Shown piece after piece: positions 59,935 to 60,741 of a DNA stretch of 64,000 nucleotides. The translations under genes were made by a program, and so were the position numbers. The notes under the pieces were generated by a model, which searched no databases, was not told where the DNA came from, and worked only from the letters and a program-made list of their open reading frames with translations. The DNA is from Octopus vulgaris (Eukaryota), in the NCBI GenBank assembly GCA_951406725.2, contig OX597820.1, positions 40,672,001-40,736,000 on the forward strand, read 5' to 3'. How positions within the stretch are numbered: position 1 is the stretch's first letter; each line of letters begins with the position of its first letter.

Positions 59935-60147
59935 GTATCCTCCTTATTCTCTTGGAGATTTTAGGTAAAAGTATATTAATGTGTCCTAATTTAATTAAAT
60001 TCTATATCTTTGTGTAGCTGAAGATCGCTCTACATTTTAAATTGATGTAATGAAATGATTGCACTGTTCAATTAAATGGAGACACATGAAACGATCGTAC
60101 TGCATTACCTCTGGATTTCCTTGTCGCTTATTTTGATTGATATATAT

Positions 60148-60656
60148 CATCAGGAGGCGTTCGATGCTTCCTAAGGCTATACAGCGGTGGTGTACCCCCT
60201 ACTGTCACGTTCTTGTTAGATTGACAGTATACAACCAGTCTATCGCCCCACCACCGTACATGTCTCTACGAGAGATTTAGAAATTCAATATTTCTTATTT
60301 TGATAATCAGTGAATAGACTTCACTGAATATAGATATATACAAATACGAAGTCGAGACAAATATCACCGGTTGACCGGTGTCTGCTACTCTAGGCCGATG
60401 AAGGACAACGATCCTGAAACACGTGTCCCTAGATGCAGTTTCGGCAGCCGGGGGTGTTTGTCTCCCCTTCGTAAATGTATATAAGGACACAGGGAAAAAT
60501 GTGTCAAAGCCATCAGGAGGCGTTCGATGCTTCCTAGGGCTATACAGCGGTGGTGTACCCCCTACTGTCACGTCCTTGTTAGATTGACAGTATACAACCA
60601 TTCTATCGCCCCACCACCGTACATGTCTCTACGAGAGATTTAGAAATTCAATATTT

Positions 60657-60661
<5 letters not shown>
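60148..60661 (+). mobile_element. Retrozyme-like / non-autonomous Penelope unit: 1.4 copies of a 363-bp monomer in (TA)n
   Basis: 151-bp direct repeats 60148-60298 and 60511-60661 (3 mismatches), hammerhead in the unique part, no credible ORF. Confidence 0.75.
60389..60433 (+). ncRNA. Minimal type I hammerhead ribozyme (U4C variant)
   Basis: ucuagg CCGAUGA agga caacga uccu GAAA cacgug UC ccuaga. All three stems perfect, GUC triplet. Confidence 0.8.

Positions 60662-60741
<80 letters not shown>

Follow-up and report, generated by a model that had tools for sequence, protein, structure and literature searches.

A dispersed 363-bp hammerhead repeat in Octopus vulgaris with integration footprints resembling those of Penelope-like elements

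The insertion and its hammerhead motif

The Octopus vulgaris DNA analysed here, a stretch of 64,000 nt that we refer to as the window, carries an insertion that belongs to a repeat family designated family A (Table 1). The two 151-bp repeats at its ends are direct, have a period of 363 bp and differ at three positions (60174/60537, 60211/60574 and 60238/60601), exactly as the original prediction had described them. The family A unit is 363 bp long and non-coding, with a GC content of 44.4%; one stop-to-stop frame noted in it, on the minus strand, spans 120 amino acids, and no coding frame of element length was seen. The prediction of a non-coding monomer with one type I hammerhead was thus borne out by a 363-bp unit with 44% GC and a hammerhead of canonical architecture.

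The insertion had been placed between (TA)n tracts, which is correct for the right side, where (TA)15 is followed by (GATA)n, but the TA stretch on the left side is just 8 nt long. The latter is possibly part of a target duplication, although inside a microsatellite it is uninformative. A different high-copy repeat, at 60007-60138, stops just upstream of the insert. A candidate exon of 48-51 bp (60787/60790-60837) is located about 125 bp downstream, with a pyrimidine tract, a CAGCAG acceptor, a GTAAGT donor and one open frame; if this exon is real, the hammerhead would be in sense orientation and intronic, a setting that might tolerate a weak core. Within the insertion, a TATATAA box followed by GGACACAG was observed at 60472-60480 (q325-333), with a similar stretch in a second family (B, below); it is a possible promoter element.

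Table 1. Features of the insertion and its flanks in the window (q, position in the family A unit).
Feature	Position	Strand	Evidence
Whole insertion, family A: single 5'-truncated arm, 514 bp (1.4 units), tailed 3' site at end	60148..60661	+	
151-bp repeat, copy 1 (q1-151; q1 = 60148)	60148..60298	+	
151-bp repeat, copy 2	60511..60661	+	
Short 3' end site of family A, fixed (q96; also 60243)	60606	+	113/239 arms end at q88-97
55-bp tail reaching the second fixed 3' end site (q151)	60607..60661	+	96/239 arms end at q144-154
ATATATAT at the 5' junction	60140..60147	.	sequence
Target tract at the 3' junction, (TA)n then (GATA)n	60660..60741	.	sequence
Type I hammerhead motif: helix I 6 bp, helix II 4 bp + CAACGA loop, helix III 2 bp + palindromic loop	60389..60433	+	
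Core CCGAUGA, U4C at 60396 as family state	60395..60401	+	119/131 young-subfamily motifs; older subfamily too
CUAC adjoining helix I	60385..60388	+	invariant in A, A-old, B, B-old, C
Long predicted rod extending helix I, hammerhead at tip	60334..60483	+	fold prediction
Small hairpin	60365..60380	+	perfect in 35/113 family copies

In the hammerhead, helix I pairs 60389-94 with 60428-33, helix II pairs 60402-05 with 60412-15, and the cut is predicted at 60427/60428. The motif had been described as having three perfect stems; the fold and its position hold, but helix III has just two base pairs, closing a palindromic ACGU loop (ACACGUGU), and is best paired between two copies, which form an intermolecular helix of 8 bp when cofolded. 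Alignment to the Rfam model RF00163 falls exactly on the motif but is weak (14.3 bits, E-value 0.57, gathering threshold 34), and an Rfam profile search over 2 kb missed RF00163 and returned only chance matches to miRNAs. A 31-nt stretch of the hammerhead has 89 exact matches in the genome, as compared to 0 for the control, and the fold of the monomer, in which the hammerhead tops a rod of about 150 nt, has a z-score of -8.9 relative to shuffled sequences; the hammerhead is therefore not a chance motif. Covariation across 16 sequences, with both sides changed in 16 of 60 pairs and 94% of cells paired (0/500 shuffles; slid controls at most 45%), is a statistic inflated by relatedness that comes largely from two family B sequences. 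The small hairpin that had been noted upstream of the hammerhead is present but was rejected as a conserved element, being imperfect in most copies (Table 1) and absorbed into the long rod in the full fold, and it is probably incidental.

The core of family A reads CCGAUGA and not CUGAUGA, with all remaining core bases matching the consensus. A CUGAUGA core occurs in six family A copies, where it is explicable as CpG decay, and U4C is retained by the older subfamily, which shows about 85% identity and in which one helix I pair has changed from G-C to A-U. CUAC on the helix I side and CAA in loop 2 are invariant across six representatives; we take them to be likely candidates for loop-loop tertiary contacts, by analogy with the Schistosoma motif. 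U4C reduces activity considerably in vitro, yet an infectious viroid carries it naturally (PMC3088659). Standard hammerhead searches would miss such family-wide non-canonical cores.

Copies, ends and sister families

A genome search with the unit gave 2118 first-look candidates, of which 40 were scored, figures that are not copy numbers; full-length matches were 95-98% identical. Copies are dispersed over most large contigs, and the sample comprises 239 distinct arms from 150 loci (L009 was left out as a duplicate of L005), which were collected by place and with four biased queries: the full monomer, the exact hammerhead, the 3' part and the older subfamily. The monomer search that had been suggested as a check thus revealed a multicopy unit in partial tandems and rare multimers, and the 150 loci dispose of a single-copy unit. 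Among 193 young family A arms, 71 are longer than one unit, the longest being 1012 nt (2.8 monomers), and only 9 contain two complete hammerheads. Most copies are partial tandems and inverted pairs, and the direct repeats, which vary in length, look like partial tandems rather than LTRs. In the window copy, only the tailed arm and a single hammerhead are present, so that no monomer can be excised by double cleavage; the copy is a product and not, as had been proposed, a template for circular RNA. The insertion was rightly called recent, with a median divergence of family A from the majority sequence of 2.1%, but the family is not the youngest, since the values for its sister families B and C are 1.2% and 0.5%.

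The 3' ends of the 239 arms are concentrated at two sites 55 nt apart, which together take 209 arms (Table 1), with the other 30 ending elsewhere. A (TA)3 stretch lies within 12 nt in 148 of these 209 arms. We infer that q96 is the first reverse-transcription start of family A. The 5' ends are scattered round the unit; they also cluster near the TATATAA box, perhaps via TA microhomology. Family A copies are thus permuted at the 5' end only, and the circular permutation originally proposed applies to their variable starts but not to their 3' ends, which lie at two sites of the type known from Penelope-like elements (PLEs).

Both ends could be classified in 58 of the 82 head-to-head pairs of family A, and 57 of these 58 combine a short with a tailed end, as compared to about half under independence. 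The corresponding counts are 30 of 32 in family B and 24 of 25 in family C. Target duplications of 10-14 bp, overlapping the element ends by a few bases, were found in 9 of the 11 pairs outside microsatellites (0/300 shuffles). At locus L160, the short arm spans q344-96 and the tailed arm q2-151, which shows that one arm cannot always be copied from the other. We infer staggered nicks, with each target strand primed at a different site. The two fixed ends, the short and tailed inverted pairs and the target duplications are the tail and inversion signature of PLEs, which are described as having partial tandems, a second copy that is inverted and truncated at its 5' end, a one-sided tail and duplications of 8-10 bp (PMC8557442, PMC3846280). 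Two internal start sites of reverse transcription, explaining the tail, are described for an anole PLE in vitro (PMC11167929).

Chimeric copies led to the two sister families, an A/B chimera (L147) to family B and a B/C chimera (L184) to family C. Family B has a unit of 362 bp (e.g., L177:1499-1860) with the core UUGA[C/A]AA, in which U3 and A8 covary, and reaches 3.6 units, with a longest arm of 1323 nt; it has hairpins with compensatory changes, and an older form was also identified (L270:2937-3490). Family C has a unit of 360 bp (e.g., L304:1501-1860) with the core CCGACGA in 106 of 110 motifs (U4C), and reaches 11 units, with a longest arm of 3920 nt. Both have two fixed 3' ends, as in family A, and family C is the best candidate for current activity. 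The 11-unit C array (L320:1193-5110; G000:C14:72706491-72710409) is a haplotype mosaic, and most of the other C multimers listed are homogeneous, such as one with four units of a type found once in the mosaic. This is the pattern that a master array releasing monomers would give; the mosaic could alternatively have been shaped by assembly error or unequal exchange. Direct junctions with no TA spacer, in the two chimeras and between family A and the PLE families P2 (L192) and P3 (L204), suggest template switching between families.

Comparison with described retrozymes and Penelope-like elements

Retrozymes are described as non-coding tandem units of about 150-450 bp with a GC content below 50%, and those of mussels as units of 350-390 bp (Cervera and de la Pena 2020, PMC7229834). 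On these DNA-level characters, family A appears to be a metazoan non-LTR retrozyme, the core being the uncertain element. The likeness extends to the non-coding 363-bp unit with GC below 50% and one type I hammerhead of canonical build, to the short palindromic helix III, to the highly self-paired monomer with a free hammerhead, to target duplications longer than 4 bp and to the co-residence of PLEs (PMC7229834). Family A differs in the fixed U4C of its core (U3/A8 in family B), in the fixed PLE-type 3' ends documented here and, unlike the long arrays described in that paper, in consisting mostly of partial tandems and inverted pairs.

With EN+ PLEs (PMC8557442, PMC3846280, PMC11167929), family A shares the partial tandems, the adjacent inverted 5'-truncated copy, a tail that may be present at one of the ends, two internal start sites, targets that are AT-rich or consist of microsatellites, and target duplications of about 10 bp. 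Unlike these elements, it has no ORF, a tail of 55 bp as compared to 30-40 bp, a canonical hammerhead and no homologous parent among the PLE loci sampled. The strands are alike in start site in the PLE experiments in vitro, whereas here they are paired one of each. The canonical metazoan build (helix I of 6 bp, helix II of 4 bp, short palindromic helix III) is distinguished from the minimal PLE motif in PMC4209133, where circles are also proposed as the origin of PLE tandems.

A link between PLEs and retrozymes was proposed earlier (PMC7229834, PMC7761336) and has phylogenetic support in vertebrates (Li, Clavereau, Pollet, bioRxiv 10.64898/2026.07.22.740005). According to PMC7761336, retrozyme repeats give no motif indicating their partner. 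As in family A, vertebrate retrozymes are mostly monomers with few multimers, and their mobilisation by PLEs is deduced from co-occurrence and pLTR phylogeny in 35 genomes of vertebrates, insects and a coral; here, the evidence is the anatomy of integration sites in an invertebrate, with no homology to pLTRs. This anatomy is independent support for the link, and family A can be described as a non-LTR retrozyme variant with direct footprints of PLE integration. Literature searches returned no report of cephalopod retrozymes, although the supplementary listings of PMC7229834 and of the preprint could hold some. For the giant squid genome, 235 Rfam hammerhead matches are given (PMC6962438).

The template and the integrating enzyme

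We favour, with moderate confidence, the interpretation that the insertion in the window is a copy, with one hammerhead, of a non-LTR retrozyme whose non-coding 363-bp units are dispersed in the genome; its integration was likely the work of the RT and GIY-YIG activities of a PLE, which probably copied a circular monomer RNA. A few loci with at least two hammerheads would be transcribed, and slow or dimer-assisted self-cleavage followed by host ligation would yield a putative 363-nt circle. A PLE protein would then make nicks some 12 bp apart in the two strands of an AT-rich target. Of the resulting 3' ends, one would start synthesis at q96 and its counterpart at q151, with 1-4 nt of microhomology in either case, and each cDNA would run backward across the cleavage junction over a variable length. 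The DNA-level evidence consists of the two fixed 3' ends, the one-of-each inverted pairs, the target duplications, the read-through of the junction and the shared haplotypes.

The predicted cut is crossed 138 times in the 193 young family A arms; four arms start within 2 nt of the cut, as compared to 2.1 expected, and 5' ends did not accumulate at the cleavage site in families A, B or C. The templates were therefore intact at the cut, either uncleaved or re-ligated. Minor alleles at non-CpG polymorphic sites were concordant between tandem units in 53 of 57 cases and between inverted arms in 85 of 89, as compared to 22% in shuffled pairs (maximum 35%). Non-CpG variants private to one locus and common to both copies numbered 3 and 7, where the chance expectation, estimated by hand, is about 1 each; 4 of the 57 tandem sites were discordant, and one C arm changes haplotype midway. 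The sharing of haplotypes points to a monomer-level template that was read repeatedly, but the concordance could also result from homology-guided jumps, bursts from a single source or gene conversion. Of the claim that the 1.4-mer reflects reverse transcription more than once round a circle, copying beyond one unit at the monomer level thus stands, but the 1.4-mer itself is not diagnostic, since partial tandems are also described for PLEs with no canonical hammerhead (PMC8557442). Reads across 60427/60428 would likewise be no proof of a circle, since this junction is already contiguous in the DNA. Pieces of the families are present in contigs from sequencing runs that were only guessed to be RNA and are uninformative on strand, ends and circles. 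One such contig of 390 nt, from run X5, wraps once round the C unit at L138:861-1220 (360+30), which a circle and a tandem fit equally well.

A more far-reaching version, which we put forward only tentatively, would have at least three related RNA circles of about 360 nt with tuned-down cores (U4C, U3/A8), a PLE RT-endonuclease dimer that integrates them by using two fixed sites of a single circle to prime both nicked strands, and master arrays of mosaic composition that give rise to homogeneous daughters. If true, it would tie the circles of animal retrozymes directly to the tail and inversion mechanism of PLEs.

Less probable than the favoured interpretation, and in our view unlikely, is that family A is a non-autonomous mini-PLE spread through uncleaved linear transcripts, with no circle, a hammerhead that is weak or merely structural, and copies longer than a unit arising when the PLE RT jumps, guided by homology, within one RNA or from one to another. 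The U4C state, fixed in families A (119/131) and C (106/110), agrees with such an element, as do the 5' ends with no pile-up at the cut, the template switching suggested by the A/B and B/C chimeras and by the fusion of A to a PLE, and the tandems formed by PLEs lacking canonical hammerheads. Insertion of the anole PLE does not require cleavage, its main template being uncleaved RNA (PMC11167929), and only one of nine Xenopus retrozyme dimers cleaved (bioRxiv 10.64898/2026.07.22.740005). Both results tell against the favoured interpretation, as do the lowered activity of U4C and the small number of arms with two hammerheads. The helices and loop bases are, however, kept with compensatory changes across three families, and in family B the 3-8 pair persists in the form U3/A8; this conservation suggests that catalysis is under selection. 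The shift in period expected after a jump to the second start site is not seen in any aligned arm, and the homogeneous daughters and the mosaic array fit the sampling of monomers.

An autonomous PLE still to be found, with the unit as its pseudo-LTR or 3' stub, is improbable, even though the footprints are wholly PLE-like and vertebrate retrozymes are related to pLTRs (bioRxiv 10.64898/2026.07.22.740005). The original prediction had named fixed ends abutting a Penelope ORF as the mark of an ordinary pseudo-LTR. The 3' ends are fixed, but at none of the 150 loci, with flanks of 1-1.5 kb, does an ORF with RT and GIY-YIG domains lie between family A copies as pseudo-LTRs; what lies upstream of a unit is another unit. 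Similarity to PLE proteins was detected in the flanks of only 7 of the 150 loci, at differing positions and orientations, and the two cases on the same strand involve separate PLE families, in which the remaining copies terminate with no family A sequence. BLAST comparison of family A with 30 GIY-YIG loci, taken from a sample in which 150 of 6136 candidates were scored, and with 10 copies of a young PLE gave TA-type matches only, and no sequence is shared with three PLE 3' UTRs. The hammerhead is, in addition, of the canonical and not of the minimal PLE build as described in PMC4209133.

The young PLE (L121-L130) has a frame of 781 amino acids with RT and GIY-YIG domains, the endonuclease being preceded by a CxxxxCxxC motif, and this frame recurs in many nearly identical versions. 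The element occurs at (TA)n targets and has short and tailed ends and a 40-bp tail. The frame is intact in 10 of 10 copies compared, which were picked from matches listed with that frame, and two copies contain an upstream frame of 479 amino acids. Relatives of this PLE have a hammerhead-like motif with a UUGAUAA core (U3/A8). Three loci at which a family copy adjoins a PLE were considered individually. A family B copy (L270) was rejected as part of the neighbouring PLE, being a separate insertion in a TA tract. The short arm of family A that lies head-to-head with the tailed end of a P3 element (L204) had the appearance of a co-insertion, but the P3 copies are older (median pairwise identity 90.5%) than young family A, so that an arm inserted later into a pre-existing stub is an equally likely origin. 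The fusion of family A to the 3' UTR of a P2 element (L192) may have arisen by a template switch or through a deletion. A literature search on the target specificity of Neptune found no paper.

Local tandem duplication or satellite formation through recombination of DNA, in which the hammerhead-like fold would be fortuitous, might explain the Rfam score below threshold and a long C array perhaps reshaped by unequal exchange, but is refuted by the dispersal over most large contigs, the fixed 3' and variable 5' ends, the inversions, the target duplications and the covariation.

These families bear on which enzyme spreads animal retrozymes and on whether PLE tandems come from circles. Being small and young, they yield quantitative footprints, namely one-of-each priming, a stagger of about 12 bp and shared haplotypes, and with an intact young PLE frame in the same genome, both questions become testable in vitro. 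Several more families of hammerhead-like repeats were observed in the flanks of family A loci (L065, L077, L097, L105, L109 and L112).
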